Assembly (NCBI GenBank): GCA_002793195.1
Contig: PFPT01000008.1
Location: 17,780-81,779, forward strand
Origin: Gammaproteobacteria bacterium CG_4_10_14_0_2_um_filter_38_22
GTDB taxonomy: Bacteria; Pseudomonadota; Gammaproteobacteria; Coxiellales; Coxiellaceae
Reading direction: 5' to 3'
DNA length: 64,000 nucleotides
In this document: positions 8,646 through 58,633 of the stretch, piece after piece
Position numbering within the stretch: position 1 is the first letter of the stretch
How the letters are laid out: each line of letters starts with the position of its first letter
Made by a program: the position numbers and the translations under genes
Notes under the pieces: model-generated
Seen by the model: only the letters and a program-made list of their open reading frames with translations
Databases searched by the model: none
Told to the model about the DNA's origin: nothing

Positions 8646-11189
8646 TTAGGCTTCAATAACCAGCGCCACATCAATTCCTTCCACGCTCACTACTTTTTCG
8701 TCTTCTTGAACGTTAATCAGTCGCACACCTTGTGTGTTTCGACCAATCACATTAATTTCAGCAACTGGAATACGCACCAGTGTGCCGCCATTGGTTACCA
8801 ATAAAATTTCAGAATCTTGCTGAACCGGAATGGACCCCACTACTTTTCCGTTACGATCAGTTGTTTGAATCGCAATCACGCCTTGTCCACCGCGACCGCA
8901 TTCACGATAATCATTAACTTCTGTACGTTGACCATATCCATTTTCAGTCACTGTTAAAATCGTACCGTCTTTTTTAGGAATAATTAAGGCAATCAATTTT
9001 TGATCGTTTTTCAAACGAATACCACGAATGCCGGTTGCTGTTCGTCCCATTGCTCGAACTTGATCTTCAGAAAAACGAATCGCTTTACCTGCATCACTGA
9101 GCAACATGATATCTTGTTTTCCATCCGTTAATGCAACACCGATTAAACGATCACCTTCATTTAAATTCAGCGCTATCTTTCCGTTTGATCTGGGGTTGGC
9201 AAACTCAGTCAATGTTACTTTTTTCACTGTACCTTTTTGTGTTGCCATAAAAATAAAATGATTTTCATCAAATTGCGCAACCGGTAAAATAGCGGTGATC
9301 AGCTCTTCTTTTTCCAAAGGCAATAAATTCACAATAGGCTGTCCACGTGCAACACGACCCCCTTGTGGCACTTGATATGTTTTGAGCCAATATACTTTTC
9401 CTGTGGTTGAGAAACACAAAATAGTATGATGGGAATTGGCCACCAATAAATTTTTCACATAATCTTCTTCTTTGACCGAGGTTGCGCGTTTTCCACGACC
9501 ACCACGATGCTGCGCATCATAACTATCAAGAGATTGTGCTTTGATATAACCCTCGTGTGACAAAGTCACCACCAAATCTTCCTCGGTAATTAAATCTTCA
9601 TTGCTTAAATCTTCATGATTTTCCATAATCACTGTACGACGTGCATCGCCAAACTGTGTTTTAATTGCGATTAACTCTTCGCGAATGACCGTATGCAAAC
9701 GATCCGGGTTTGATAAAATTTCCATTAATGCATTAATGTCTTCAATAAGTTGCTTATACTCGTCGTGAATTTTATCGGTTTCTAATCCAGTTAAGCGATG
9801 CAAACGCAAATCCAAAATGGCTTGTGCTTGATCAGACGATAAATAATATTTTCCATCACGCAATCCATATTGATCAGATAAATCATCCGGACGGGTTTGA
9901 TTAGCACCTGCCTTTGCAAGTAATTGCGCTACCAAACCAGGCTCCCATGCCGTTGCTAACAACAACACTTTGGCATCAGCAGGTGTTTTTGCAGATTTAA
10001 TCATTGCAACGATGCTATCAATGTTTGCTAACGCAACACCAAGCCCTTCTAAAATATGAGCGCGTTGTTTGGCTTTGGCCAATTCAAAAATTGTGCGACG
10101 CGTCACTACTTCACGGCGATGCTGTAAAAACGCATTCAAAATAAACTTGAGATTCATGACTTGTGGACGACCGTTATACAGCGCCACCATATTAATTCCA
10201 AACACAGATTGTAGTTGTGTTTGTGCAAATAAGTTGTTGAGCACTACTTCAGGTTGATCACCACGACGCACTTCAATAACCATGCGCATACCACTTTTAT
10301 CTGACTCATCGCGCAAACCAACAATGCCTTCAATGACTTTATCGCGAACCATCTCACCGATACGTTCCAATAATCGCGCCTTGTTCACTTGATACGGTAA
10401 TTCATGCACAATAATCGACACGCGATTGGTTTTTTCATTTGTTTCAATGTCTGTTTTTGCACGCACATAAATTTTACCGCGACCCGTGCGATAAGCTTTT
10501 ATAATACCGCCACGACCATTAATAATACCCGCCGTTGGAAAATCAGGGCCAGGTACATATTGCATTAATTCATCAATGGTCAATTCTGCATTGTCGATCA
10601 ACGCTAATGTAGCATCAATAATTTCAGATAAATTATGCGGGGGAATATTAGTAGCCATCCCAACAGCAATACCAGACGAGCCATTCACCAGCAAATTGGG
10701 AATACGCGTAGGTAAAACAGTTGGCATATATTCAGTTTCATCATAATTTGGCTGAAAATCGACTGTTTCTTTATCGATATCAGCAAGCAAATGATGCGCA
10801 AATTGTGACATTCTGATTTCGGTATAACGCATTGCAGCCGGTGAATCACCATCGACTGAACCAAAGTTACCTTGCCCATCAACCAGCATATAACGCAAAC
10901 TAAAAGGCTGCGCCATACGCACAATGGTATCGTAGACTGCTGTATCACCATGCGGATGGTATTTACCAATCACATCACCCACAATACGCGCTGATTTTTT
11001 ATAAGCTTTATTCCAATCGTTACTTAATTCATGCATCGCATACAAAACGCGGCGATGTACAGGTTTTAAACCATCGCGCACGTCGGGCAATGCGCGTCCG
11101 ACAATCACGCTCATCGCATAGTCTAAGTAAGATTGTTTTAGTTCGTGTTCAATCGTAATGGTGGTAATTTCTTTAGCCAAATTGGTCAT
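8646..11189 (-). CDS. gyrA: DNA gyrase subunit A
   Basis: '[28 protein letters not shown]', the 'AAMRYTE' active-site Tyr region, and C-terminal beta-pinwheel repeats. The probable start is MTNLAKE at 11189. Confidence 0.97.
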
Positions 11190-11295
11190 GGTAACTTGCC
11201 TTTGTGACATGATTTTGAGAGCGATAATCATATCATAATTTGACGCTTTTTGTTACGATTACAGCGGTTAAATTTTCATCTAAAAAGGACCCTTC

Positions 11296-16101: not shown

Positions 16102-18114
16102 TTAACTCTCAAAATAGCTTTTCTTTAGCTGCATGATTCGATCACGAAGCTGTGCTGCTTTTTCAAATTCTAAGTTTCTAGCACAAGACAACATCTGCTC
16201 TTCTAATGCAGCTAATTTTTTTTCAAACTGCTGTGGCGATAATGCTAAAACAGAAATCGCGTTTTCAGCTATCATCTGTGCTTTTAACATACCCAGTCGC
16301 GGTGTTGTTTCATCATCCTGCGTTTCTATAATGGAATGCACCGCTTTTTGAATTCCAACTGGCGTAATATGATGCAATATATTATAAGCCGCTTGTTTTT
16401 CGCGTCTGCGGTTAGTTTCATCCATTGCGCGCTTCATCGATTTTGTTATTTTATCGGCATATAAAATAGCTTTACCATGTAAATTACGCGCTGCTCGACC
16501 AATCGTTTGCACCAATGATCTTTCTGAACGTAAAAATCCTTCCTTATCCGCATCTAAAATAGCCACGAGTGATACTTCAGGCAAATCCAATCCTTCTCGT
16601 AATAAATTAATGCCAATTAATACATCGAAAACACCCAATCGCAAATCACGTAAAATTTCCACACGTTCAACGGTATCAATGTCTGAATGCAAATAACGCA
16701 CTTTCACACCCTGCTCCGCAAGATATTCGGTGAGGTCTTCGCTCATACGCTTAGTTAACGTTGTCACTAAAACACGTTCATTTTTTTTTGCGCGTATGCT
16801 TACTTCAGATAACAAGTCATCTACTTGCGTTTTAACAGGCCTGATTTCAACCTCAGGATCTAACAAGCCAGTCGGACGCACAACCAATTCAACAATATCA
16901 GTTCCATGTTTTAACTCATAATCCGATGGCGTAGCTGATACAAAAATAGTTTGCGGTGCTATTTTTTCAAATTCATCAAATCGCAATGGACGATTATCTA
17001 ACGCTGAAGGCAAGCGAAACCCATAATTCACTAAGTTTTCTTTTCTTGCACGATCACCCATATACATGCCACCTAATTGTGGAATGGTCACATGTGACTC
17101 ATCAATCACCAATAGCGCATCATTGGGCAAGTAATCCATTAATGTGGGCGGCGGCTCACCTGGATTACGTCCTGATAAATAACGTGAATAATTTTCAATA
17201 CCTGAACAATACCCCAACTCAACCAGCATTTCTAAATCAAACAACGTGCGTTGCTCTATGCGTTGACGTTCAATTAATTTATTCTGCTCTTGAAATTCAG
17301 CTGTACGTGTTTTTAACTCCGCCTTCACTTGATCAATCATTTTTAATATTGTCGCACGCGGTGTCACATAATGTGTTTTAGGGAAAATAGTCACACGCTG
17401 TACTTTACGTTTCACTTTATTCGTCAATGGATCAAAAAATTGTATCCGCTCAATTTCATCATCAAACAGTTGAATGCGAATCGCATCACTCTCTGAATCT
17501 GCGGGAAAGACATCTATCACATCGCCTGAAACCCGATAATTAGCACGGTTTAATTCTAATTCATTCCGTGAATATTGCATGGCCGCCAATCGATGCAATA
17601 ACGCACGTTGATCAATACGCTCACCAACACTCACATGCAATACCATACTCAAATAGGCTTTGGGATCACCCAAACCATAAATTGCTGAAACCGTTGCAAC
17701 TATAATCACATCATTACGTTCTAATAATGCTTTTGTTGCTGATAAACGCATTTGCTCAATATGCGCATTAATTGAAGCATCTTTTTCAATAAAAGTATCT
17801 GTGGATGGAACATATGCCTCAGGTTGATAGTAATCATAATAGGATACAAAATATTCAACTGCATTTTTTGGAAAAAATTCTCGCAATTCAGCATATAATT
17901 GTGCTGCTAAAGTTTTATTAGGCGCCAATACCAAGGTGGGTTTTTGCACACGCGCAATGACATTAGCAATCGTAAATGTTTTACCCGAACCTGTTACACC
18001 CAATAATGTTTGATATGCCAACCCTGCTTTCAAGCCATCCACTAATTTTTCAATTGCTTGTGGCTGATCACCATTGGGCTGAAAAGGCGTTACTAATTGA
18101 AATAATTCAGACAT
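16102..18114 (-). CDS. uvrB: Excinuclease ABC subunit B
   Basis: 'GVTGSGKTF' Walker A, 'DESH' box, and a C-terminal UVR domain '[11 protein letters not shown]'. The probable start is MSELFQL at 18114. Confidence 0.97.
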
Positions 18115-18212
18115 CAAAATACACTCACACTCACTTTCATATTGGCATTCGCTATTGTAAACAACCACTAACTTATTTAAAGTATCGTCAATTTCAATAT
18201 AAGGATTTTCAC

Positions 18213-19617: not shown

Positions 19618-19689
<72 letters not shown>

Positions 19690-19763
19690 CAATCTTTTCA
19701 AGCAGTTACACCCTTTTCTGATTTTCCAAAAATGCCCTTGTGGGCGTTTTGTGGGCCATCATT

Positions 19764-20867
19764 TTAAACAACCTTTTTCAATAGCATTAATGTCGGCGTA
19801 CTTGCTTGTTTATCACAAGCTTTGTTTGCAGCCTCCAATAATTTTGACATTTCTGCTGCCGAATAATGCGTCGTGATTCGACCTGATTTATGACCAAGTA
19901 AATCTTGCCTATCTTCGTAACTCACACCCGCCGCACGCAGTCGCCGACCATAAGTGTGCTTCAAATCATGAACTCGTAATGTTGGAAGATTTGAACACTG
20001 ACGTGCTGCCTTCCATCCCGAATTCAACATCCGATCAATAGGCTTACCTCGATAAGTGAACACAAATTCTGAATCTTGACCTCGAACGGTTTCAATTACT
20101 TTTTGTGCCGTCTTATTTAAGATAATTAATCTTTCTTGTCCGTTTTTAATCAAGCGAACTCGCTCACCATTTAGCATTGCAAAAGCAGGAATAATAAAAG
20201 CACTCGCATTCAATTGTGGTATGCGAACCTCCCACTCCCACCTCAGCCGACAAACTTCCCTATCTCGACTGCCTGTATACATGGAAAATAACGCCATGTT
20301 TCTCAGGTGCTCCGGCAATGCCGCTACTAACCGATCTTCTTGCTCCCAACTTAAAGGCTGCGGAGCTCGAGTATCGTATTCGGGCAACAATTTAATTTTT
20401 GGTGCAGTAAGTATCCATGTGAGTCCATTTTCATCAATCCATTCACTCGCTGCTAAATTTAAAATGTGACGAACAATTTTCAAACCATGATTAATGGTTC
20501 GTGTTTTTCGTCCTTCTTTTTTTCTCGCTTCAATGAAGGATTGCAATGTACCCATATGCATACGATGCAATGCGATATCTTTTATATAAGGCATAATCAT
20601 TCGCAAATGGCTGGCATCGCTATCGATACTACCTTTGTCCTGATTATCCCTTAAATATTTAATCGCAGCTTCTGCAAAAACCCTTTCAGGTCGCACACCA
20701 AATATTACTGCCTGTCTTAATTCTTCGATTCGACGAGCGAGGAGAGCTTGCGCTTCTTCAAACGACTTTGTTCCAGTAGTTCCTCGAATTCGCTGACCAA
20801 AGATTTTTTTATCAATGTGCCAGCACCCACCACGTTTGATGAGGCCTGACGTTCTTTTTTGACCCAT
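19764..20867 (-). CDS. int: Tyrosine-type site-specific integrase
   Basis: 367 aa. The C-terminal catalytic region has 'TGSRDREVCRLRW', 'HDLKHTYGRRLRAAG' and 'LLGH..GRITTHY' (R..H..R..H..Y). It is adjacent and convergent to the tRNA 3' end. Confidence 0.92.
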   Translation of the reverse strand: MGQKRTSGLIKRGGCWHIDKKIFGQRIRGTTGTKSFEEAQALLARRIEELRQAVIFGVRPERVFAEAAIKYLRDNQDKGSIDSDASHLRMIMPYIKDIALHRMHMGTLQSFIEARKKEGRKTRTINHGLKIVRHILNLAASEWIDENGLTWILTAPKIKLLPEYDTRAPQPLSWEQEDRLVAALPEHLRNMALFSMYTGSRDREVCRLRWEWEVRIPQLNASAFIIPAFAMLNGERVRLIKNGQERLIILNKTAQKVIETVRGQDSEFVFTYRGKPIDRMLNSGWKAARQCSNLPTLRVHDLKHTYGRRLRAAGVSYEDRQDLLGHKSGRITTHYSAAEMSKLLEAANKACDKQASTPTLMLLKKVV

Positions 20868-40969: not shown

Positions 40970-41206
40970 TCAGGCAGCTACAAAACTAAAGAAGATCATT
41001 AATACAATTGATAAGCTAAACAAATAGAGCATAAATCTCATATGATCCTGTATTTGCCCATTTTCAAGTAATTTAATTAATCCAATGATGATAAATAAAC
41101 TAACAACCGTAATGAGCAAACCTGCACTGAGACGCAATAAAAAATTCAAATGATTAGCATGAATACCGCTACCCATTAAAAAGGCCTCACGTTGTCCGGG
41201 CGTCAT
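40970..41206 (-). CDS. Small ICE membrane protein (TIGR03758-like)
   Basis: 78 aa with two TM helices. It has a 4-nt overlap with the RAQPRD-family gene. Confidence 0.45.
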   Translation of the reverse strand: MTPGQREAFLMGSGIHANHLNFLLRLSAGLLITVVSLFIIIGLIKLLENGQIQDHMRFMLYLFSLSIVLMIFFSFVAA

Positions 41207-41562
41207 GATCCGCTCTCCTCATTTTTATTTTTAATCATTGATTGCGGCTTAGGTAAATCAGGCAAATAGTCTCCTGACAATGACTGCACCATTCGTGGCT
41301 GAATGGATACATGATTGACTGCCTGCGCAATACCAGACTGAATATTTGCGATATCACTTCGTAATTGATCAAATTGAAATTGAACACGTGCATTCGGATT
41401 TTGTTGCGATTGCGCTAAATTAATCAGTGGATTAATTTGATTTAAAACAGCGCTAATTCTTGCAAGCGTTGCGTTCATTTGTGCGGTATCTGCAAATGCG
41501 CTATTACATAATAATAAAATTAAAAAGATACCGCCCAACTTCAACGGATTAATAGATTTCAT
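41203..41562 (-). CDS. RAQPRD-family ICE protein
   Basis: The start at 41562 has a GAGGAG RBS. Signal peptide. '...RVQFQFDQLRSDIANIQSGI......SIQPRMV' matches the layout of the RAQPRD family (here IQPRM). Confidence 0.55.
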   Translation of the reverse strand: MKSINPLKLGGIFLILLLCNSAFADTAQMNATLARISAVLNQINPLINLAQSQQNPNARVQFQFDQLRSDIANIQSGIAQAVNHVSIQPRMVQSLSGDYLPDLPKPQSMIKNKNEESGS

Positions 41563-41821
41563 ACTTCTTCTCCTCTCATGCTCATTATTTTTTACTAAAA
41601 CTAATGTGATTAAAAAATACACACAGGATTTCATCAACAGATTCTGTTAACAAGGCTGTGGAAAACTCATGATCAAACACAGTAGCTCTTGACTCAGCCA
41701 TGAATTTTATTAAATCGTTTAAAAATAACTCACTATTTTTCAATAAATTGACCTGTAAAAAAATGAAACAAATTCCATTTTTTGATAGAATCGACAAATA
41801 CAATATGTGATAGGTACTTCT

Positions 41822-42334
41822 ATGCTAAATAGCCAACAAACTTCACCCAGTGAAGCCAAAAAGTATATTGATGCTATCGATTTTTCGATGATTATCGATA
41901 AAACGGTAAAAACTACCGGCTGGAAGAAAAAAGATGTCCTGAGGATTTGTGAATATTATAAAAACTTTCTGTTTTTAAACAAAAAATATGCCCATGAACG
42001 TGGGCAGTTACCACCATCAGAAGAAATCGATGAGTTCTGGCACAATCACATTTTAGACACTAAAAAATATCACGAAGATTGCAATATCATTTTTGGTTAT
42101 TACTTGCATCACTATCCTTATTTTGGCATGGATGATCAATCCAATGAAAAAGATCTTTCTAATGCATTTGAACACATGCAGCAACTGTATAAAAAAGAGT
42201 TCGGGGATTATATTTATCGTGTTAGAAAATTAAGCCTTCTTGAAATTGCAGCCACATCTGTAGAAATCATAAAAGAATTTTTTAGAAAAAAACTATTTCT
42301 ATTAAAAGAAATTGCAAATGACAGAAAACTTTAA
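41822..42334 (+). CDS. GRDP-like (PF07173/DUF1399-type) His-rich protein
   Basis: 'EEIDEFWHNHILDTKKYHEDC....YLHHYPYFG' matches the GRDP-like core 'D.D..WH.H.L....Y..DC'. The alternative GTG start is at 41807. It overlaps the downstream transporter gene by 23 nt. Confidence 0.55.
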   Translation: MLNSQQTSPSEAKKYIDAIDFSMIIDKTVKTTGWKKKDVLRICEYYKNFLFLNKKYAHERGQLPPSEEIDEFWHNHILDTKKYHEDCNIIFGYYLHHYPYFGMDDQSNEKDLSNAFEHMQQLYKKEFGDYIYRVRKLSLLEIAATSVEIIKEFFRKKLFLLKEIANDRKL

Positions 42335-43751
42335 CCGTAAAAAAACATTACTAATTATTTGCACGACTGAGTTTTTCAGCTGCTTTTCATTTTTTGGCAC
42401 GCTAAGCTTATTGATTCTTTTCCTTATCAGGCATGCAGGAATTCCCGAGAAAATTTCTTACAGTATTTTTGGAAATTTTGCATCGTTATCTTGTGTTTCT
42501 GCCCTAATTGGTGGATTTATAGGTGGTCGTTACTTAACCTTTCGCTTTTCATCTATATTGGGATTAACTGCATATGCATTAGGTTATTTTATTTTAGCGA
42601 TAGATCAAAAAATTATTTTCATTGATGCTGGTTTAACATTAGTTGCATGTGGCGCGGGATTATTTGAACCAAACATCAGAACATTGCTTGGAATTCACTA
42701 TAATCAATGCGGATCAGAAGAAAGAAATTCTGGCTTTATTTTATTACATATTTTTAACATATGCGGACAAATCTTTGGTCCTATTACATTAACTTTTTTG
42801 AATCGTGTTTATCCATCCTTAATGTTTATAACATCAGGGATTGCCTGTGTATTAGGTGGCATCATATTTCTAAATAACTACCAAAATATCTTCAAATTAC
42901 TAGAGAACGAACATATAAAAAAACCAATTGATACTTGCAAAGGATTATCAATTGTAATCCTGCTACTTGCACTGATATTTTTTATTCTCTATCAAAGGGA
43001 TGTGAAATATATTCTTGAAGCTATTTTTACTGGGGTTTTTGTCATTCTTATTATAGCTCTACCACGAATGGAATATTTAACACGTGTTAAAATTATTACA
43101 ATCTGTTTAATTCTGACTGGGTTAGTAGCTGCAGAAATTTGTTTTCGGCAAGCTTTCGGTACAATCAATCTATTTACGTCAACTCATGTTAACAGAACTT
43201 TATTTCATGTCATGATTCCGACAGGTGTTTTTCAATCATTGGAGCCATCATTCGTTCTAATTTTATTTATATGGGTTTTAAAGCTTCGCAAAAAATTGGA
43301 AAAAAATGGGCACGGCTTGTCTTCTGGCGGTTCCATATCATTGGGTTTATTAAGCTTAAGTATCGCTTTTTGTTTTTTAATATACGGAATCTTTCTAACC
43401 ACCCAAAAAATGGCGCTTATTTGGTTAGTATTATTTTATGCTGTTATGGCTTTCGCTGAGTTATTTACCATACCTATCGCAACAGCAACCACAGCAGCTT
43501 TATCACCAAAAAATTTGCGTGGTCCAATGATGGGTATTTTCTTTTTATCTGCAGGATTGAGCTCATATTTAAGTGGTCATATTGGGGAATATATCAGTCC
43601 ACACGCTGGCAATCCCAGTCTAAGTGTTTACAAAAATTTGTTTTTAACGCTGGCTGCATTTTCTGCAATCAGCTGCGTCTGTTTGTATTTTGTTTGGAAA
43701 TACTGGAAGAAGAAAAATGATTTAATACTATCAGAAGAAACAAAAAATTGA
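42312..43751 (+). CDS. POT/PTR2-like MFS transporter with a degenerate ExxERFxYY motif
   Basis: 479 aa with ~12-14 TM helices. N-terminal 'TTEFFSCFSFFG' aligns with the POT signature 'E..ERF.YYG', but the second Glu and the Arg are replaced. Confidence 0.6.
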   Translation: MQMTENFNRKKTLLIICTTEFFSCFSFFGTLSLLILFLIRHAGIPEKISYSIFGNFASLSCVSALIGGFIGGRYLTFRFSSILGLTAYALGYFILAIDQKIIFIDAGLTLVACGAGLFEPNIRTLLGIHYNQCGSEERNSGFILLHIFNICGQIFGPITLTFLNRVYPSLMFITSGIACVLGGIIFLNNYQNIFKLLENEHIKKPIDTCKGLSIVILLLALIFFILYQRDVKYILEAIFTGVFVILIIALPRMEYLTRVKIITICLILTGLVAAEICFRQAFGTINLFTSTHVNRTLFHVMIPTGVFQSLEPSFVLILFIWVLKLRKKLEKNGHGLSSGGSISLGLLSLSIAFCFLIYGIFLTTQKMALIWLVLFYAVMAFAELFTIPIATATTAALSPKNLRGPMMGIFFLSAGLSSYLSGHIGEYISPHAGNPSLSVYKNLFLTLAAFSAISCVCLYFVWKYWKKKNDLILSEETKN

Positions 43752-43833
43752 CAAGAAACGATATGTAAAGAAAAAACCCGCAGAACACATAATCCTCATT
43801 CGAAGAAATGCAGAATACGGGATTTTGAGCATA

Positions 43834-43911
43834 TTAGTTTGTAAAAGGAACACATGCGGCTGCTTTAGCAGTCTTAAACCGATTTTTAATAGATTTGATC
43901 AAGGTCTTCAT
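43834..43911 (-). CDS. Mini-ORF P1, 25 aa (MKTLIKSIKNRFKTAKAAACVPFTN)
   Basis: AGGAGAG RBS 5 nt upstream of the ATG. It is a paralogue of mini-ORF P2, 190 nt upstream on the same strand. It is absent from the ORF track because it is short. Confidence 0.45.
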   Translation of the reverse strand: MKTLIKSIKNRFKTAKAAACVPFTN

Positions 43912-43950
43912 AAGTCTCTCCTAATTTGAATGATGACAGTATAATGAACG

Positions 43951-44029
43951 TTTGATGTTATAACATATGTCAATTCTACAATACAAATAATCTTATTATA
44001 TGATGTACATTATGTACTATAACATCAAA
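43951..44029. promoter_or_regulatory. 12-bp perfect inverted repeat between the two mini-ORFs
   Basis: TTTGATGTTATA (43951-43962) and TATAACATCAAA (44018-44029). The intervening sequence contains the palindrome ATGTACAT and a TTGACA on the minus strand. Confidence 0.35.
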
Positions 44030-44098
44030 ATTATTATGTGTTTTTTGTGATACTGGCGGAAGAAACACGCAAAAAAAATTATTAGAAAAATATAATAA

Positions 44099-44170
44099 TT
44101 AAACAGCCAAACAATGCGCAGCAGAAGCTTTTTTAAATTTATTTTTTAACATCAATTTTAATTTTTTCAT
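44099..44170 (-). CDS. Mini-ORF P2, 23 aa (MKKLKLMLKNKFKKASAAHCLAV)
   Basis: 11 of 23 aligned residues are identical to P1 (MK.L....KN.FK.A.AA.C). The shared Ala/Cys codons differ at synonymous positions. The RBS is weak (AGAGA). Confidence 0.4.
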   Translation of the reverse strand: MKKLKLMLKNKFKKASAAHCLAV

Positions 44171-44186
44171 GATATCTCTATCTTCT

Positions 44187-44200
44187 GTGAAAATTTTCAC
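44187..44200. promoter_or_regulatory. Perfect 14-bp palindrome GTGAAAATTTTCAC between the GNAT stop and mini-ORF P2
   Basis: Read directly from the sequence. It lies 6 nt after the GNAT stop codon and 17 nt before the P2 start. Confidence 0.3.
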
Positions 44201-44205
44201 TACTA

Positions 44206-44760
44206 TTAAGGCAGTAACCTTGCAATATAGTGCTCATCAAAATACTTTCCGTTGATGTACAACGCTTTTTTACGAATGCCTTCCACTTCATAGCCTAACG
44301 TTTTATATAAATGCAATGCCCTGTCATTTTCAATATGTACTTCTGATTCTATACGTTTGAAGTTAGCTGAAATCGCAAATTTTTCAAGCAGTTCAAGCAT
44401 TCGATGACCCAAACCATGACCCCAATTAATTTGTCGAATCATTAATCCAAATCTACCAATATGACGCAGCCATGGATGTCCTTCTCGTATTGCGTGAAAA
44501 ACTAAAAGCCCATGCATTTCTCCAGATTCTAAAAATGCTCCTAACTCAAGCATTCTTGGATTTGCTTCCGACAACACCAATCGTTTTTCTATTGAATCTG
44601 CAGTATCTATATTAAAACCACCTAATTTGGTAAAACTGGTTTCCGCTGCAATTGTTTTTTCAAAATCAGGAAAAACAGCGGCATCTTTTGGTGTGCAATG
44701 CCTTAAAAAAATAGCTTTACCATTCTTGGGTTTAAAGATTTCCATATCAATTTTTGCCAT
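44206..44760 (-). CDS. GNAT-family N-acetyltransferase (RimJ/RimL-like)
   Basis: 184 aa. The acetyl-CoA binding region is 'QINWGHGLGHRMLE' (Q/R-x-x-G-x-G/A) with the 'ENDRALHLYKTLGYEVEG' motif. Confidence 0.85.
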   Translation of the reverse strand: MAKIDMEIFKPKNGKAIFLRHCTPKDAAVFPDFEKTIAAETSFTKLGGFNIDTADSIEKRLVLSEANPRMLELGAFLESGEMHGLLVFHAIREGHPWLRHIGRFGLMIRQINWGHGLGHRMLELLEKFAISANFKRIESEVHIENDRALHLYKTLGYEVEGIRKKALYINGKYFDEHYIARLLP

Positions 44761-44814
44761 TATTACTCCTTAATAATTCATTCAAATTCCTTATGCTAGT
44801 TTATCACAACAACT

Positions 44815-45492
44815 CTAAAAATATTTTTTGAACGACTTTGCCGTTACCTGAATCGCAAGTGCAAACAATATGGCAGAGATCACCAGTATCCATTCATTCA
44901 CACGTAATGAAACTGGCAATACTAAATCAGCAAAAACACTGAAAATTAAGCTCAACATGATTAAAGGTTTCATATTATGGTAGATCAACGCACTTTCTCG
45001 ACCCGCTGAAAAACGGCGAATTTTTCGTAGCATTAATCCATCTATTAATCCTGCAAATCCAAGCAGCAAAAACAAGTAACACCAATGCGCAAATAAATAT
45101 AACCGCACTACCAATAATTTTGCTGCAAGCAATACAGCAGCAATCATTAAATTTACATGCGATAAAATCGTATATTCATATTGTGTCTTTGATAATAGTA
45201 ATAGAGGATTTTTCAATATGATTTTATTTGGAAAAACAGCCATCCAATGATTAACAATCAATAACGCATTAGGTGTTATTAGCGTCGACAGAGTTTGATA
45301 GCTTTCTTCTAATAATTTCTGAAATGTTACAAAACCTGATATTCCATGTAACGTCACAAGAATAACCGCTATCAGAACACATCCAAAACACCCTGCGACT
45401 ATCCAAATAAAAAAACGTATGAATAACCAAATCCATAAATCAAGCAATGTTGGTGATTTTTGCGTTTTATGTGCCTTTTCTGCTTTTTTCAT
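44815..45492 (-). CDS. ICE membrane protein (TIGR03747-like)
   Basis: 225 aa and polytopic, directly downstream of traD as in PFGI-1-type ICEs. Confidence 0.5.
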   Translation of the reverse strand: MKKAEKAHKTQKSPTLLDLWIWLFIRFFIWIVAGCFGCVLIAVILVTLHGISGFVTFQKLLEESYQTLSTLITPNALLIVNHWMAVFPNKIILKNPLLLLSKTQYEYTILSHVNLMIAAVLLAAKLLVVRLYLFAHWCYLFLLLGFAGLIDGLMLRKIRRFSAGRESALIYHNMKPLIMLSLIFSVFADLVLPVSLRVNEWILVISAILFALAIQVTAKSFKKYF

Positions 45493-52967: not shown

Positions 52968-53010
52968 TGCAGCCACTATCATTTACGCTTTACGACTTTT
53001 TGGTATCTAA

Positions 53011-53808
53011 CTATATTAAACCCATATAAGCACCACCATCCACTTGCATCATGAGTCCACTTACATAGCTCGCTGCGGGTGAAACTAAAAATACTACAAC
53101 ATTTGCAAATTCTTGTGGTGTTCCCATTCGCTTCAATGGGATATTTTTCACCACCTCTTTTTCACACACTTCATAAGTACTATTTAATTTTTCAGCACGA
53201 TTATTTAATAAATAAATCGTTCGATCCGTTGCTGTCCATCCAGGCAAAATAGAATTAACGCGTATTCCATACACACCCAGTTCTTGCGACAACGTTTTTG
53301 TTAAACCAATTACCGCTGGACGAATAACATTTGACATAAACAAATTTGGGATGGGTTCTTTTGCTGCAGTGCTCGTGATTGTCAAAATACTGGGAGCTTC
53401 GCTTTTTTTAAGATGAGGCAATGCTGCCTGTACAAGATACACAACACTCATCAGCGTTAATTGAAAACCTTTGTCATACATTTCTAATGCAATCGTTTCA
53501 AACGTTCCTGTTGGCGGACCACCTGCATTCGTAACCACAATGTCAATCTGTGAAAATTTTTCTACTGCAGCAGAAACAAACTGCGTTATTTGCGCATGAT
53601 TGGTCACATCACAGGAAAAAACAAGGAAATTTTTTTCATCTGCCAATTTTGATAACTCAACATGCACTGCTGCATTTCGTTTTTCGTCACGCCCACAAAT
53701 AGCAACCTTAGCACCTTCAGCCAGCAATTGTTTTGCAGTTGCCAATCCCAAACCATCAGTTGCGGCTGCCAAAACCGCGACTTTATTTTCTAAATTTAAA
53801 TTCATCAC
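53011..53808 (-). CDS. Short-chain dehydrogenase/reductase (SDR)
   Basis: 'AVLAAATDGLGLA' Rossmann motif, 'NAGG', and the catalytic region 'S...........NV.RPAV'. 265 aa. Confidence 0.85.
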   Translation of the reverse strand: MMNLNLENKVAVLAAATDGLGLATAKQLLAEGAKVAICGRDEKRNAAVHVELSKLADEKNFLVFSCDVTNHAQITQFVSAAVEKFSQIDIVVTNAGGPPTGTFETIALEMYDKGFQLTLMSVVYLVQAALPHLKKSEAPSILTITSTAAKEPIPNLFMSNVIRPAVIGLTKTLSQELGVYGIRVNSILPGWTATDRTIYLLNNRAEKLNSTYEVCEKEVVKNIPLKRMGTPQEFANVVVFLVSPAASYVSGLMMQVDGGAYMGLI

Positions 53809-53818
53809 ACTTCCTTTT

Positions 53819-54721
53819 TTAATTATTAACTAAAATATTATTTGATTTGACAACAACCGTGTTTTTTCGCATATAAATAACACCAAGCCCACCAATGACA
53901 ATACCAATCATCCCGACAATCATCGTTTTTGTAATCACTTCGGAAAATAAGGCATGCGCTAAAATCAATGAAAATACAATATTTGAATAATAAAGCGTAG
54001 AAACAATTTGCGGTGTCGTATATGTTGCAGCCAATGTTAAAAAATACTGCACAAAGAAAAATAATATACCAATTAATAAAATTGAAAGCACATGTAGATT
54101 AGATACTTCATGCCAAAATGGAATAGACACAAAGCCTGCTAAAATTGTCGATATTAAAAAATAATAATATAAACTTTTAACACTATCATCGATAGCAGAT
54201 ATTTTTCGCATCATCACAATAGACAGTCCTGCTGAAACAGCCGACCCCAATGCATAAAATGCCCCCGTTGAAAAAATATGCTTATCTAAATGTAATGTTA
54301 ACATCACACCTGCAAAGCCTATAAAAACAAATGGCCACAATGCATGATTAATTTTGGTACGCAATATAATGAGTGCGACAAACGGAATAAATAACGGAAA
54401 AGTATTATAAAGCAGTACAGAATCAAAGTAAGAGATTTTCTTTAGCGCTGTAAATAGGAAAAAGCTAATGCCCAAGCTAAATATTGTTCTTAAAAAATGC
54501 TGCATTTTTATGTTAGAAAATGTAATGGGATTAAAAGATTTTGCACCATGACGCAAACCAATAACCGGCACTACCATTAGCAAGCAAATAAAACTTTGAA
54601 TAAAAACCAATACGGGGACCGGTATATGTGCACCTGTCATTTTAATAACTGAAATTTGCAGCGCATAACATAAAGCACTCAAAATAGAAAAAATCGCACC
54701 AACATACACAAGATTTTTCAC
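53819..54721 (-). CDS. EamA/DMT-family transporter
   Basis: 300 aa with ~10 TM helices in two repeated halves, typical of EamA-domain exporters. Confidence 0.75.
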   Translation of the reverse strand: MKNLVYVGAIFSILSALCYALQISVIKMTGAHIPVPVLVFIQSFICLLMVVPVIGLRHGAKSFNPITFSNIKMQHFLRTIFSLGISFFLFTALKKISYFDSVLLYNTFPLFIPFVALIILRTKINHALWPFVFIGFAGVMLTLHLDKHIFSTGAFYALGSAVSAGLSIVMMRKISAIDDSVKSLYYYFLISTILAGFVSIPFWHEVSNLHVLSILLIGILFFFVQYFLTLAATYTTPQIVSTLYYSNIVFSLILAHALFSEVITKTMIVGMIGIVIGGLGVIYMRKNTVVVKSNNILVNN

Positions 54722-54746
54722 AATAAAACTCCTTTGTTTTTTCTAA

Positions 54747-55931
54747 TTATTTAATAATATTGGGTCTGCTAATAGAGAATTCATCAATTTTTATTTCTGT
54801 CTCACCATAAACCGCAAGCTCAGCACAAATTTTTCCAAATAATGGAACAAATTTAAACGCCCACCCTCCTGTACATATCACCACGTTTTTATGATAAGGA
54901 ACTAGATCCTTTGGCATAAAATCTAATAAACTATGATTATCAGGAAAATGTGTCATTAATGCGCTAGCCATATCAATAGGCGCTGAATCAACGCCGCGAA
55001 TATGCTGTTTCACATAATCTTGTGTCAATTGTATATCAATACGTCGTGGAGCAAACTCTCGCTCTGTGGGATCTGCAAAAACATGGGATGCCCAATCCAC
55101 TGCAAATCTCACAAAATTGTCTCTTCCAAATTTTACGTTAGGAAATCCATAAAATAAATTAGAATGGCCATTACGCGGCTCATCAAATTGAAACCACATA
55201 GGAAAATATAAGCTTGGATCAGTAACACGATAATAAGCGAAACACATCTCCCACAGCTTCACATTAAATTCAAATCCAAAACTGGGTTTAACAATCTCAT
55301 TAACATAAGCACCCGGGCACAAAATTAATTTTTTTGCGTGAAAAACACCCTCATTAGTAATTACTTCAACACCATTGGCATCCGTTTTTATTTCAGTCAC
55401 TAACTGCTGCGTTTTAATATTGACACCATACATTCGACATAATTTTAATAACGAATGCGTTGTTTCTTTTACATCAATTGTTGCACCATCCTCTTGAAAG
55501 ACACCTGAAAAATCCTTATGTAGATTTTTAAAAGGATATCTAGACTCAATTTGATTCTTTGTTAATCTTGTGTATTTCTTTCCAAGCATATCCATCACTT
55601 GAATCGCACTTTCTAATGTACCTTCTGGCGTATAATCCGTTTCTAATCCAAAATTCAACAATCCATTTTTATGCAATAGTTTGACATCGGCTTTTTGCTC
55701 AAGATCACGAAACAACTCTCCAGCAGTTACTGCTAATTTGGCATGATTTAATTCGGTATACATGATTCTCCACATACGAACATGCCCCGCCGAACTGCCA
55801 TGTTGATTGCCAATAGAAAATCGTTCTAACAACGTGACTGTCTTTCCTTCTTTTGCACAAAACAAAGCACTTGCCATTCCGATTGGCCCACCACCCACAA
55901 CAATAATATCGCTATCATAATGCGTAAACAT
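54747..55931 (-). CDS. FAD-dependent amine oxidase of the monomeric sarcosine / N-methyltryptophan / pipecolate oxidase family
   Basis: The N-terminal 'DIIVVGGGPIGMASA' dinucleotide fold, 'GSSAGHVRMWR' and C-terminal 'VICTGGWAFKFVP' parallel the MSOX/SolA layout. Confidence 0.8.
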   Translation of the reverse strand: MFTHYDSDIIVVGGGPIGMASALFCAKEGKTVTLLERFSIGNQHGSSAGHVRMWRIMYTELNHAKLAVTAGELFRDLEQKADVKLLHKNGLLNFGLETDYTPEGTLESAIQVMDMLGKKYTRLTKNQIESRYPFKNLHKDFSGVFQEDGATIDVKETTHSLLKLCRMYGVNIKTQQLVTEIKTDANGVEVITNEGVFHAKKLILCPGAYVNEIVKPSFGFEFNVKLWEMCFAYYRVTDPSLYFPMWFQFDEPRNGHSNLFYGFPNVKFGRDNFVRFAVDWASHVFADPTEREFAPRRIDIQLTQDYVKQHIRGVDSAPIDMASALMTHFPDNHSLLDFMPKDLVPYHKNVVICTGGWAFKFVPLFGKICAELAVYGETEIKIDEFSISRPNIIK

Positions 55932-55949
55932 AAAACTATTTCCTATTTA

Positions 55950-57002
55950 TCAAGCCAATTTTGCATCTAAAATATTTTCATTTTCCGAAAGCACAAAAAA
56001 CATATTTAGCGCTTCGGCAGTTGAAATATAATGCGCTTTTGCAAAAGATAATATTTTTTGGGTCTTATGCCGCTTTGCATCATAAACAAATTGATAGACC
56101 TTTTCTGGATTCGATTGTTGGTATTTTTTTGGATTAATAAATTCAAGAGAATCACAAATAACAGCACCAGCATTACTCACCACATCAGGTAGCCAGTTAA
56201 TATTTTTTAATTTAAGTTTTTCTATGACAGCATCATTTGAAAAAGGTGCATTTGCACTACTGATAATCCAACGCGTATTCAATGCATCCACATTATATTC
56301 ATCAATGACACCGCTTTTTGAACATAGCACCATATAATCACAAGGTGTTTGATGCCAATCTGACTGGTGAGAAATATTAACTGAACCCGCTATATTTGCT
56401 GCACCAATGTTGACATCATAAGTGTAAACGAGATGTCCTGCTTCAATAAGTTTTTCTGCAATAACAGTTCCAATTTTTCCAAGACCGTGAATTAAAAATC
56501 GTTTAGGATGCTCTAAATGATCCTCACTGCTCATTACTGCTATCAATGATCCATATACGCCATACGCTGTAGCAGTTGATGTATTAACAGAACTACCAAT
56601 ACCATTTAGCACATAAGGTGTGAGCGAAAATAAATAATCCATATCTTCATTATTTATATTCAAATCACAACCTGTATATATTTTTCCATTAAAATTATTT
56701 AAAATTTCAGCAGCAGCATTGAGCACTTTTAATTTGTTTTCTGCTGTTACATCACCCGAAGCCACCAACTTAACACCTGAAAAACCAGTATTATAGAGCG
56801 CATGCTTTTGTGTCATTTTTCTGGCGAGCGTTAATGCCTCATCTTGCACTTCAGACAAACTTTCGTATTTACAAAACCTCAGCCCACCATTTGCTGGCAA
56901 TGATTTTTTTGTATTATTATAAGCAACAGTGATACTCAACTTATCCTCAATAAAATAGGTTTCTACTTTATAATTATCGATACTAATAATCTGTGTTTTC
57001 AT
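55950..57002 (-). CDS. Glu/Leu/Phe/Val-type amino-acid dehydrogenase family protein
   Basis: 'ANGGLRF', 'TGFSGVKLV' (catalytic Lys region) and the NAD-binding 'IHGLGKIGTVIAEKL'. The probable start is MKTQII at 57002. Confidence 0.65.
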   Translation of the reverse strand: MKTQIISIDNYKVETYFIEDKLSITVAYNNTKKSLPANGGLRFCKYESLSEVQDEALTLARKMTQKHALYNTGFSGVKLVASGDVTAENKLKVLNAAAEILNNFNGKIYTGCDLNINNEDMDYLFSLTPYVLNGIGSSVNTSTATAYGVYGSLIAVMSSEDHLEHPKRFLIHGLGKIGTVIAEKLIEAGHLVYTYDVNIGAANIAGSVNISHQSDWHQTPCDYMVLCSKSGVIDEYNVDALNTRWIISSANAPFSNDAVIEKLKLKNINWLPDVVSNAGAVICDSLEFINPKKYQQSNPEKVYQFVYDAKRHKTQKILSFAKAHYISTAEALNMFFVLSENENILDAKLA

Positions 57003-57056
57003 TTTTCCATCCTTTAAATTTATTTTAATCATTACAATTGAATACAATTTTTATAC

Positions 57057-58622
57057 CTACATACTTGCAGAAACAGTTTGAATATTCAGATTCGAATCAG
57101 CGCCATTTAATAATGGCGTTGACACATTGTGAAATGCAAAACGATTAGCAGCATTAGAATGACGAACTGGAGTTGCCTGTTCTTGCACACTTTTTTTATC
57201 AAAAACTGAAAATCGATAAGCTGTAAAACATGAAGCCAAACCTATCAACCCGTTTCTTAACCATGCAAATCCTTCAATGGAATCTTTTTCAAACAGTAAG
57301 GCTGCACCAATACCAGCAAAAAGCACTGTCATCGTTAAAAAACTCACGACAGTCGCATAATTAACATCCTTAAATCCCTTCAAACTTCCGGCAGAAACGT
57401 TGCGCAACATATCAAACACTAATCCAAGCGCGCTATACTGAATAAGTTTTGTTGATTGATTAAAATCGGCATCACTCATGCCATCATATAAAAATATTTT
57501 GGCAAGATAACTCGGTGCAACAATGCAAATAATTGCAAGCGTTAGACTGAGAGCGCTACCCACTATTAATCCTTGTCGTGCAATTTTAGTAATATTATTT
57601 TTTGCATTTTCTGCACTTTCCTCATCGGCTCTATCAATTGCTGCTCTCATCGCACCTCTTTCGGCAGCAATTAAATTAGCTTGCGCCTGACCAAGACCAA
57701 TGCAAACTAATCCCCATGCTGATGCAATTTGAATTGAAGGAGACATTATTTGGAGCGCAGGAATATTTTTATGTTTTCCGTAAGCTGATAATAAAGATGC
57801 AGTAGCAGTTAGATTTGCAAATTCAGCACCTGCTTGAAGACTGGTTTTCCAACCAATAGACATTAATTCACAACAATATTTTTTAACATCCATCATGTCT
57901 AAAGAAAATAAATCATACGAATGATATTTTTTACTGGCATAAAAATAAATTCGCATTGCCAACAGACCAAGCCAAGCTGATAAGGCGGTGCTCATACCAA
58001 AGCCCTTAATGCCTGACAACCCATCACCTAATTTTCCAAGTGTTGCTGGAATACCGATACCAGAAGCAATTAAAGAATAAATTGCTGTAAATCCCAATGT
58101 CACATGAGGATCTTTTGTAGCTACCGCTAGTTGCTGATCTGCAACAGAAAGTAATACAGCAGGTACCGCTATCGCGTAGAAATCTAAATATTCTTGTGTG
58201 TATTTTGCAACATTACTGTCTAACATATTGGCTGCAGACATAATTCTGGGCGCACCTAACATCAACCCAATGGATGCAGCAGCTGCAAGCAGCGCAGCTA
58301 TCCAAGTGCTTCGACTAATTTTACCAATTTTTGCATATTGTTTTTCACCGTATTTTTCGCTGAATATCATCCCAGAACCAAATAGCAAACCTTGTGCTGC
58401 GCCTACAAATAAATATTGTAATGACGTAAATGAAGCAGCTGCCGCCACCTCATCTTTGCCAAGTTGGCTAGACGCATAACCCATTGCAATGGTATTTAAA
58501 GCAAATAACAAACGTGCTGTTGCAAATGGGACAGATTTGCTCAGCACCATCTTAAGCGCTTTAATTTCTGTTAATGCATCATGCATTTCTTCTATTTTTA
58601 TTCGTGTCATATTAATTCTCAC
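57057..58622 (-). CDS. MATE-like multidrug/metabolite efflux transporter
   Basis: 521 aa with ~12 TM helices. The N-terminal region 'SVPFATARLLFALNTIAMGYASSQLGKDEVAAAA' resembles MATE family openings. Moderate certainty. Confidence 0.55.
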   Translation of the reverse strand: MRINMTRIKIEEMHDALTEIKALKMVLSKSVPFATARLLFALNTIAMGYASSQLGKDEVAAAASFTSLQYLFVGAAQGLLFGSGMIFSEKYGEKQYAKIGKISRSTWIAALLAAAASIGLMLGAPRIMSAANMLDSNVAKYTQEYLDFYAIAVPAVLLSVADQQLAVATKDPHVTLGFTAIYSLIASGIGIPATLGKLGDGLSGIKGFGMSTALSAWLGLLAMRIYFYASKKYHSYDLFSLDMMDVKKYCCELMSIGWKTSLQAGAEFANLTATASLLSAYGKHKNIPALQIMSPSIQIASAWGLVCIGLGQAQANLIAAERGAMRAAIDRADEESAENAKNNITKIARQGLIVGSALSLTLAIICIVAPSYLAKIFLYDGMSDADFNQSTKLIQYSALGLVFDMLRNVSAGSLKGFKDVNYATVVSFLTMTVLFAGIGAALLFEKDSIEGFAWLRNGLIGLASCFTAYRFSVFDKKSVQEQATPVRHSNAANRFAFHNVSTPLLNGADSNLNIQTVSASM

Positions 58623-58633
58623 TATTTTATTTA

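Follow-up and report, generated by a model that had tools for sequence, protein, structure and literature searches.

The window analysed here is a stretch of 64,000 nucleotides from contig PFPT01000008.1, a chromosomal segment of a low-GC gammaproteobacterial metagenome-assembled genome (MAG). Within it, a block of 3,252 bp parts the TIGR03747 and RAQPRD conjugation genes of an integrative and conjugative element (ICE). Because these genes are spaced by 160 nt in the reference element ICEHin1056, the block is an insertion; coordinates and comparison bear out the break of about 3.2 kb in the operon that an earlier note on this DNA had described. The block encodes a UCP032817-like/GRDP-like protein (hereafter UCP), an atypical POT-family transporter of the major facilitator superfamily (MFS), a GNAT acetyltransferase and two short cysteine-containing peptides, P1 and P2. 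The block proteins are 99-100% identical to COY58_00470/475/480 of GenBank, where the three large genes are hypothetical (UCP is COY58_00470, 'hypothetical protein') and carry consecutive locus tags, so that P1 and P2 are unannotated. The block is best explained as a mobile three-part peptide module, carried as cargo by an ICE of the MPF_G type. As judged from gene neighbourhoods, comparison between genomes shows the peptides to be genetically locked to UCP and, in this clade, also to the atypical POT protein.

P1 and P2, together with the ribosome-binding site AGGAGAG of P1, lie where the earlier note had placed them (Table 1). The two peptides are identical at 11 of 23 positions, and the codons for Ala17 and Ala18 differ synonymously (GCA/GCT and GCC/GCG), as a codon comparison reproduced. 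For orthologues from other loci (given L numbers), the proportions of synonymous (pS) and nonsynonymous (pN) differences were 0.77 and 0.22 between P1 and its L009 counterpart, and 0.84 and 0.17 between P2 and its L013 counterpart; the P2 type was also found at L098 and L099. These values indicate that selection acts on the peptide, as the earlier note had argued, and Shine-Dalgarno (SD) sites are described below. P1 has five residues after the cysteine and ends in Asn, whereas P2 and most family members do not end in Asn.

A scan with one genome per species yielded 80 UCP loci, and a hidden Markov model (HMM) built from 54 peptides was searched across 1.05 Mb. About 70 hits were obtained, nearly all of them within 2.5 kb of a UCP gene, with E = 5e-6 for P1. 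As a control against circularity, an HMM was built without the POT clade; of the window's 3,082 stop-to-stop segments, P1 had rank 1 with it and P2 rank 4. The peptide family and its co-occurrence with GRDP-like genes, both anticipated in the earlier note, were thus recovered in dozens of distant genomes. The peptide genes are mostly located 50-600 nt downstream of UCP on the same strand, and they occur on either side and either strand of it. Tandem copies are present at L071 (five), L041 and L051 (four each) and L062 and L067 (three each). The peptides are 17-26 residues long with a mean net charge of +5.6 (range +2 to +8) and follow the consensus M-K-K-[LIF]-[LIF]-x-x-[FL]-[FL]-x-K-K-x-A-[RK]-x-A-x-C-x(1-8). 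Among 56 non-redundant members, Ala is found at position -2 from the cysteine in 47 and at -5 in 40; position -3 is mostly A, S or P, whereas -1 varies between A, H, L, G, T and W. A motif resembling an SD site, in most cases AGGAG, was detected at -4 to -20 in 55 of the 56, compared with 23% of random ATGs at the same loci, and the pooled pN/pS was 0.37 over 79 pairs. In sequence terms, the mini-open reading frames (mini-ORFs) are real coding genes under purifying selection. Pfam and NCBIfam gave no match for eight peptides covering all types, and the E. coli genomes searched held no homologue.

Short open reading frames (ORFs) are frequent in this AT-rich region (33% GC), the spacer contains palindromes and a terminator, and the SD sequence of P2 is weak. 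That the mini-ORFs are cis-acting leader peptides, or chance ORFs in an AT-rich small-RNA or terminator spacer, is nevertheless largely refuted and very hard to credit. The peptide is conserved, with synonymous change at saturation, across loci whose UCP is 58-76% identical to that of the window, and P1 and P2 orthologues are found at these loci. The near-universal SD sites, the occurrence of peptides on either side and strand of UCP and the in-frame fusion of the motif to UCP elsewhere likewise speak against it. Rfam detected the tRNA-Asn alone in the window and no RNA family in the spacer.

The association also holds when all forms of the peptide are counted. Among the 80 genome loci, 34 carry MKK-type peptides, 12 carry peptides ending in ...GGGGHCQGGG.W, 5 have tails with two cysteines, 7 have UCP fused to 6-16 tandem A-x-C repeats, and about 9 have other SD-preceded cysteine peptides. 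An associated cysteine peptide or tail, adjacent or fused, is therefore present at no fewer than 66 loci (at least 66/80), and the peptide type tracks the identity band of UCP. Across the loci compared, UCP is the one universally conserved peptide partner. The earlier note had suggested that the GRDP-like protein might bind metal; the role of an accessory metal binder does not fit this distribution and the fusions.

The N-terminal part of the peptides (M-K-K-hydrophobic...KK.A) is conserved and the tail after the cysteine is variable in length and sequence, and the putative core would comprise just 2-8 residues; the putative cores of the window peptides are A-A-A-C and A-A-H-C. In peptides of the P2 type, a Lys-rich stretch is followed by a C-a-a-X terminus (CLAV, CSAF, CMAW, CTPL), which recalls the tail of K-Ras4B, and the C-termini of the POT-clade peptides conform to this pattern. 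Legionellales or Coxiellaceae MAGs make up many of the carriers, and Legionella CaaX effectors are known to be prenylated. We consider it highly improbable, however, that these are host-targeted polybasic CaaX-like peptides that host enzymes prenylate after delivery into a eukaryotic host. A single residue follows the cysteine in 34 of the 56 members, and five follow it in P1; the UCP-peptide link also exists in Pseudomonas, Halomonas and Trinickia, which are free-living and have motifs other than CaaX; and neither a secretion signal nor an effector context was seen. The CaaX reading was rejected on these family-wide motif statistics. Two further candidates were discarded. For a bacterial lipoprotein signal, which calls for a hydrophobic h-region and the lipobox L-[AS]-[GA]-C, position -1 is variable, -3 is mostly A/S/P, the 'h-region' is Lys-rich and the mature part would comprise just 1-8 residues. 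For the toxin of a type I toxin-antitoxin pair, the peptides are Lys-rich (+2 to +8) and have no hydrophobic span.

It was also considered that the peptides act unmodified as cationic effectors (bacteriocin-like, toxin-like or similar to phenol-soluble modulins), with UCP as immunity protein, chaperone or antitoxin and the transporter as exporter or immunity pump. The peptides are short, strongly charged and striped with hydrophobic residues, they occur in several copies and in mobile or defence-island contexts, and a GNAT and a pump lie nearby, as in microcin immunity. We judge this reading unlikely. Amphipathicity is modest (z about 0.7 against shuffles), so a strong amphipathic-helix claim was abandoned, and the Gly-rich HCQGGGGW peptides and fused A-x-C repeats retain the cysteine motif and the link to UCP although neither are cationic amphipaths. 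The invariant His/Asp/Tyr constellation of UCP is typical of catalysis. PADLOC gave no match for UCP, POT, GNAT or their neighbours, which indicates that the block is not a known defence system. MFS and MATE pumps rarely export peptides of 2-3 kDa.

The assignment of UCP to PF27765 (UCP032817-like) was taken from the precomputed annotation of the database; locally, PF07173 reached 18 bits, below its cut-off of 22.7. The His-rich motif FWHNHILDTKKYHEDC...HHYPYFG, noticed earlier in a protein then described as GRDP-like, is present, and the pattern W-H-x-H-I-L-D-T...H-H-x-P-Y is conserved in both UCP alignments; profile match and motif together place the protein in the GRDP-like/UCP032817-like family. 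Across 124 diverse members, D70, W73, H74, Y83 and H97 are invariant, and H76, T80, P99 and E126 are conserved in at least 90%. The AlphaFold2 (AF2) model is all-alpha with seven helices and a pLDDT of 93. A Foldseek search against the PDB and a PDB profile search returned nothing significant (best E = 1.2). With neither fold nor sequence support from the PDB, readings of UCP as an HD-domain protein, a regulator or a heme-oxygenase-like protein were dropped. The family comprises 10,686 clusters at 50% identity (E up to 1e-3). A full-text literature search on the family found no bacterial study, but plant GRDP physiology and passing mentions in fungal, Hydra and other genomes; a search on the peptides and UCP, including HCQGGG and Legionella RiPPs (peptides synthesized by ribosomes and modified post-translationally), returned only plant and fungal GRDPs and unrelated RiPP classes.

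The C-terminal helix of UCP resembles a peptide leader, for example ...FIAFFKKKLKAKPKRV at L018 and positions 42230-42331 of the window. UCP tails had a median HMM score of 0.05 bits, while the tails of other proteins had -1.7 bits (Mann-Whitney p = 5e-10). The resemblance hints at gene fission as the origin, or at a pseudo-substrate.

In sister clades of UCP the same partnership takes other forms. The Gly-rich clade has one layout at 12 of 12 loci (Pseudomonas, Yersinia, a Klebsiella plasmid, Halomonas and Neisseria, namely N. iguanae): a 41-52-residue peptide ORF with a conserved ...QKLSxEAKKFL... middle and the end ...GGGGHCQGGG[GSDN]W is followed by UCP and then by an overlapping transporter of about 435 residues with 12 transmembrane (TM) segments. 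The transporter shows weak MatE similarity and is present at all 12 of these Pseudomonas-type loci; the cysteine peptides encoded with this MATE-like protein end in ...GGGGHCQGGGGW. On the Halomonas plasmid NZ_CP130702 (L101), the cassette directly follows luxR-luxI, and its RefSeq labels are 'hypothetical' and 'glycine-rich domain-containing protein-like'. The L093 operon encodes a TonB-dependent receptor, TonB, a 49-residue Cys-rich peptide with the core CxGxCxGxC, UCP, a DUF4015 TIM-barrel protein and a DUF308 protein, and the receptor is shared by the related loci L079, L080 and L090. By analogy, this layout resembles a cluster for uptake and production of a metallophore.

At other loci the peptide motif is part of UCP itself. 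In genome-locus fusions, UCP is joined to 6-16 tandem repeats of 11-13 residues, each containing A-[AS]-[YWF]-C (A-A-Y-C or S-A-F-C). Further fusions were found among the family clusters (P0220, P0252, P0266, P0237 and P0238), with repeats of A-W-C, A-Y-C, A-L-C or T-A-T-C and, in some versions, N-terminal signal peptides. Other UCP proteins bear Gly/Cys-rich tails, which in P0133 and P0138 are metallothionein-like (Cys/Gly or Cys/Asp). In P0218, P0224, P0264 and P0244, UCP is fused to a Sulfotransfer_2-like or an S-adenosylmethionine-dependent methyltransferase domain. From the partnership at at least 66 of the 80 loci and the natural A-x-C repeat fusions, we infer that UCP is the probable maturation enzyme of the peptides, and the repeat fusions would be enzyme-substrate fusions comparable to BURP or OphMA proteins. 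The residue pattern, the fusions to tailoring enzymes and the signal-peptide-bearing (exported) versions suggest that the enzyme is metal-dependent. At about 15 loci, two related families of single-pass membrane proteins (200-260 residues) lie convergently just after the UCP-peptide unit; their N-terminus is a coiled coil, two cysteines are conserved in their extracytoplasmic domain, and they gave no Pfam match.

The same features could reflect metal handling without covalent modification, with UCP as metal binder or sensor, the cysteine peptides serving as metallochaperones, as buffers or as ligands through their thiols, and the metal-peptide complex moved by the transporter. The His-rich motif of UCP, the metallothionein-like tails of P0133 and P0138, the frequent His before the cysteine (AAHC, GHCQ) and the TonB receptor, TonB and siderophore-like neighbours at sister loci are in keeping with such a role. 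Most peptides, however, have a single cysteine with a variable -1 residue and would be poor chelators, the conserved Ala residues at -2 and -5 look like recognition rather than ligation, and the sulfotransferase and methyltransferase fusions suggest tailoring chemistry. This explanation appears improbable to us.

The POT gene overlaps UCP by 17 nt (17-23 nt depending on the start). Its product matches PF00854 over the full length (E = 3e-16, 59.7 bits against a cut-off of 27) and TIGR00924 (127 bits). The sequence EFFSC aligns with ELWER of E. coli DtpA, and the TM4 lysine is replaced (FKAN to FEPN). Both replacements are common to all seven aligned subfamily members, and the TM10 Glu is kept; the protein thus belongs to the POT family by profile and lacks the ExxER(K) motif and the TM4 Lys. 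Alignment and coordinates bear out the degenerate ExxER motif and the overlap with the upstream gene reported earlier. All eight POT-subfamily loci combine UCP, POT and a convergent peptide, with UCP 55-76% and POT 35-64% identical to the window. Reading of the homologue contigs placed a peptide gene just past POT, and convergent with it, at every POT-clade locus, including L024, where POT has moved to the other side of UCP and the peptide is still convergent on POT. At 16 generic POT loci (about 100 kb), neither UCP nor peptide was found. The subfamily is rare and always beside UCP; a metagenome scan for more such loci returned only two that were already known. A transporter had been counted as part of the system, and in this clade POT is indeed fixed. 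The type of transporter varies between clades, however (MATE-like, TonB receptor), and on the loci compared the core unit is UCP plus cysteine peptide, with a clade-dependent transporter. POT-type modules elsewhere adjoin HigB/HigA-like or RelE/HTH toxin-antitoxin pairs, type I restriction-modification genes, ArdA or an excisionase-like HTH gene; by gene content, such neighbourhoods are mobile or defence-island contexts.

The GNAT fared differently. It matched generic Pfam acetyltransferase profiles, and was correctly recognized as a GNAT in the earlier note; the RimJ/L type named there did not hold, as the scores against the RimL model (25 bits, cut-off 184) and the RimJ model (16.4 bits, cut-off 190) are far below the equivalog cut-offs. 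No orthologue was present at any other locus examined. One of eight other POT-type loci (L096) has a GNAT, which lies on the other side of the module and, at 21% identity over 76 residues, is unrelated. The GNAT was therefore rejected as a conserved partner of the module, contrary to the co-occurrence proposed before. An immunity role of the MccE/TfxH type is possible by analogy, and unsupported.

Taken together, we favour a RiPP-like system of a new kind: ribosomal peptides would be modified at their cysteine by UCP, and a small product would be carried by the transporter. We consider this reading somewhat likelier to be right than wrong. Short precursor genes are coupled to a dedicated enzyme gene across taxa, as in RiPP systems generally. 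P1 and P2 would first be translated, a step well supported by the SD sites and purifying selection. Cytoplasmic UCP would then recognise the cationic N-terminal part as a leader and chemically modify the cysteine region, probably with a bound metal; co-occurrence, co-diversification and the natural UCP fusions to tandem A-x-C repeats point to this step. More speculatively, peptidases not encoded in the block might release a small C-terminal product, which the POT-like transporter might move across the inner membrane, most likely outward; a small product is suggested by the associated transporters (POT, MATE-like, MFS), whose substrates are small molecules. The GNAT may confer self-protection by acetylating the product or the peptide, in the manner of MccE and TfxH, and is more likely an unrelated passenger. 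The sister clades, with their TonB receptor, MATE-like transporter and siderophore-like neighbours, suggest by analogy that the products might be peptides that are secreted and bind metal.

Several points weigh against the RiPP-like reading. The entire evidence base is comparative genomics. Neither a leader peptidase nor an RiPP recognition element (RRE) nor any known RiPP enzyme was recognisable in the block with Pfam and NCBIfam, where YcaO, Lan, radical SAM, MNIO, ATP-grasp, P450 and RRE families all went without a match; the earlier note had likewise seen no known maturation enzyme, and no known RiPP or microcin family was found either. The putative core is very short, with one residue after the cysteine in 34 of 56 peptides, and the invariance of the cysteine is due in part to the choice of HMM seeds. 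About 12 of the 80 UCP loci have no visible peptide, several of them on truncated contigs, and P2 has the weak SD sequence mentioned above. In the AF2 model of the fusion P0252 no repeat was docked, and the tail was predicted as beta strands of low confidence (pLDDT 50-59). Import, moreover, is what POT proteins normally do.

A wider proposal, which we hold only tentatively and think rather doubtful, is that UCP032817/GRDP proteins form a new metal-dependent superfamily of peptide-modifying enzymes that make the A-x-C cysteine metal-binding or reactive, and that the peptides are a new ICE- and plasmid-borne class, possibly secreted metallophores. If it were true, the plant and fungal GRDP domain would receive its first biochemical function. 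Should the RiPP-like reading hold, short ribosomal peptides with an A-x-C motif would be a testable substrate for an orphan domain that comprises more than 10,000 clusters at 50% identity and occurs in bacteria and, through GRDP/DUF1399, also in plants and fungi. Both the enzyme fold and the peptide class would be new to RiPP biochemistry, gene callers would be overlooking a whole family of genes for 17-25 residues, and conjugative elements would pass a trait based on a small molecule or peptide from one Legionellales-like bacterium to another. Carriers that can be cultivated exist in Pseudomonas, Yersinia, Neisseria iguanae, Halomonas and Trinickia, which makes the question directly testable.

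Table 1. Features of the window and of related UCP loci
Feature	Locus	Position	Strand	Remarks
gyrA	window	8646-11231		chromosomal side of ICE
uvrB	window	16102-18168		chromosomal side of ICE
tRNA-Asn	window	19618-19690		adjoined by ICE
tRNA-Asn and tyrosine recombinase region	window	19618-20867		recombinase directly downstream of tRNA
RAQPRD-family ICE gene	window	41203..41562	-	PF09686, TIGR01690 above cut-offs; left flank of insertion
Inserted block	window	41563-44814		3,252 bp
RAQPRD-UCP divergent intergenic region	window	41563..41821	.	probable promoters for both genes
ORF, 38-72 aa	window	41585-41803	-	spans the intergenic region
Promoter-like match	window	41763-41791	+	weak
UCP032817-like/GRDP-like protein, 170 aa	window	41822..42334 (alternative GTG start 41807)	+	PF27765; proposed peptide-modifying enzyme
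POT-family MFS transporter, 477 aa, atypical	window	42318..43751 (alternative start 42312)	+	PF00854, TIGR00924
Bidirectional terminator-like hairpin	window	43771..43827 (stem 43777-43821)	.	A-run and T-run flanks; between convergent POT and P1
P1 mini-ORF, 25 aa, MKTLIKSIKNRFKTAKAAACVPFTN	window	43834..43911	-	strong SD AGGAGAG; proposed precursor peptide
27-nt direct repeat	window	region 43940-44029		P2-P1 spacer
Perfect 12-bp inverted repeat TTTGATGTTATA / TATAACATCAAA	window	43951-62/44018-29	.	P2-P1 spacer
P2 mini-ORF, 23 aa, MKKLKLMLKNKFKKASAAHCLAV	window	44099..44170	-	weak SD GAGA; proposed precursor peptide
14-bp palindrome GTGAAAATTTTCAC	window	44187..44200	.	17 nt upstream of P2 ATG; read from sequence
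GNAT acetyltransferase, 184 aa	window	44206..44760	-	Acetyltransf_3/4/1; orientation of T4SS genes, P2 and P1
TIGR03747/DUF4400 ICE membrane protein	window	44815..45492	-	profile matches; right flank of insertion
Second cargo-like stretch	window	53000-60200		in or beside ICE
FAD amino-acid oxidase-like gene	window	54747-55931		second stretch
MATE efflux gene	window	57057-58622		second stretch
APC amino-acid permease gene	window	58634-60124		second stretch
Peptide MKRLAQAIKNRFKAAKAAHCFCFKN	L009
Peptide MKKLALVIKNRFKKASAAHCSAF	L013
Peptide MKKLTQVIRNRFKKARAAHCMAW	L099
Peptide MKKLLKLAKQRFKKACAAHCTPL	L098
Peptide MKLISKFLKALKAAKPAACT	L096
Peptides, two copies: MKKLVKAIRNRFMQAAVATCD; MKRLVEAVRNRFMQAIVATCE	L003			MKRLVEAVRNRFMQAIVATCE with GTG start
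Peptide MLKKLGFFLKRRKTALPAACIPR	L024
Neighbours of POT-type modules	L003	5120-5769
Neighbours of POT-type modules	L013	2677-3433
Neighbours of POT-type modules	L096	1-2736, 6870-7382
Neighbours of POT-type modules	L099	2629-4751
Gly-rich clade cassettes	L039, L042, L043, L046-L050, L054, L055, L059, L061	~5700-7700 in each
UCP-repeat fusion	L085	6001-6702		fusion loci: Trinickia, Telluria, Janthinobacterium, others
UCP-repeat fusion	L089	~5980-6891
UCP-repeat fusions	L086, L088, L094, L095
TonB receptor-UCP operon	L093	696-5397
Single-pass membrane proteins	L017, L021, L022, L029, L056, L063, L066, L068; L006, L016, L018, L020, L071

The peptide genes are accompanied by several candidate control elements. 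The palindrome upstream of P2 and the inverted repeat in the spacer, both pointed out before, are real. Extended by 1 nt (44186-44200, TGTGAAAATTTTCAC), the palindrome is a near-perfect TGTGA-N6-TCACA, which we take to resemble a CRP/FNR-type site; as RNA, it folds into a weak hairpin only. The inverted repeat is a possible operator upstream of P1. The minus-strand fold of the hairpin between POT and P1 has -18.1 kcal/mol (z = -2.4) and is followed by UUUUUUCUUU, and by this prediction the hairpin can terminate both convergent units. On the strand of the type IV secretion system (T4SS) genes, TIGR03747 is followed downstream by GNAT, P2 and P1, and with this layout these three may be co-transcribed with the conjugation genes.

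The host element carries the markers of an MPF_G-type ICE: TraD (TIGR03754), TIGR03747, RAQPRD, TraC (TIGR03744) and an integrase by a tRNA. It also encodes topoisomerase III. The RAQPRD gene is the first of the displaced downstream T4SS genes and is called as a 119-residue gene in the identical contig L001. The short ORF between RAQPRD and UCP is not called in the identical JGI contig, and a family search with it gave no match. The element adjoins tRNA-Asn, with gyrA and uvrB on the chromosomal side, and a second cargo-like stretch encodes oxidase-, efflux- and permease-like proteins (Table 1). A metagenome scan for a sister ICE without the insertion found none.

By analogy, the architecture (precursors, one enzyme, transporter) works like an RiPP cluster, and the nearest likeness is to methanobactin/bufferin systems or, via GNAT and pump, to microcin C and the tiarins. 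With methanobactin/bufferin (MNIO, DUF692) the block shares a short precursor with a cysteine of interest and a single small, non-ATP enzyme gene adjoining it; the MATE/MFS exporters and TonB-dependent receptors of those systems have their counterparts in sister UCP clades. In contrast, no DUF692/MbnB or MbnC-type partner was found in the block or the sister loci examined, UCP is all-alpha without a PDB match and not a TIM barrel, the precursors have no signal peptide and no sequence similarity, and in the clade of the window the transporter is POT-like and a TonB receptor is lacking.

In trifolitoxin/tiarin and microcin C systems, too, the modified C-terminal part of the precursor includes a cysteine or lies next to one (x-Q-G-C in tiarins) and a MATE/MFS exporter is present; in the window, peptide, pump and GNAT stand side by side. 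The tiarin family is defined by a nitroreductase-like TfxB/TfxC pair (plus YcaO) and an x-Q-G-C core, and the RimL-like GNATs TfxH and MccE detoxify the processed warhead (10.64898/2025.12.02.691738). The block, however, has no TfxB, TfxC or YcaO, its motif is A-x-C, and its GNAT is not conserved with the module. The microcin C analogy drawn in the earlier note fails on the absence of the defining enzyme MccB (a ThiF-like adenylyltransferase) from the block, and of P1 and P2 only P1 ends in Asn, as a microcin C precursor does. With peptide motifs of its own and without DUF692, MccB or TfxB/C/YcaO, the system belongs to none of the methanobactin, microcin C and tiarin kinds.

BURP-domain cyclases and the borosin OphMA resemble UCP in that an enzyme is fused to tandem core motifs and also occurs in split versions with free peptides. 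Their domains are unrelated, however, and the UCP repeats centre on Cys and not on Tyr/Trp cross-links or N-methylation, with the chemistry of UCP only putative. Plant GRDP1/2 (DUF1399, PF07173) share the core D-x-x-W-H-x-H-I-L-D-T-x-x-Y, give partial PF07173 matches and likewise have the domain joined to low-complexity Gly-rich sequence, whereas the window UCP does not reach the PF07173 cut-off and has PF27765 as its assigned family; in the literature searched, plant GRDPs have physiological phenotypes only and no known biochemistry. The transporter has the MFS fold, the full-length PF00854 and TIGR00924 matches and the TM10 Glu of canonical POT/PTR2 symporters (DtpA-D, PepT), and differs from them throughout the subfamily by E-F-F-S-C for ExxER, Glu for the TM4 Lys and its strict linkage to UCP and peptide. 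Of the overall picture given in the earlier note, the coding mini-ORFs and their tie to the GRDP-like and POT genes stand, and the GNAT partner and the microcin C analogy do not. An undescribed peptide system, as suggested there, fits peptides and a UCP without functional annotation or literature. The finding is neither an artefact nor explained by a described system, and would represent a new class of RiPP-like kind.

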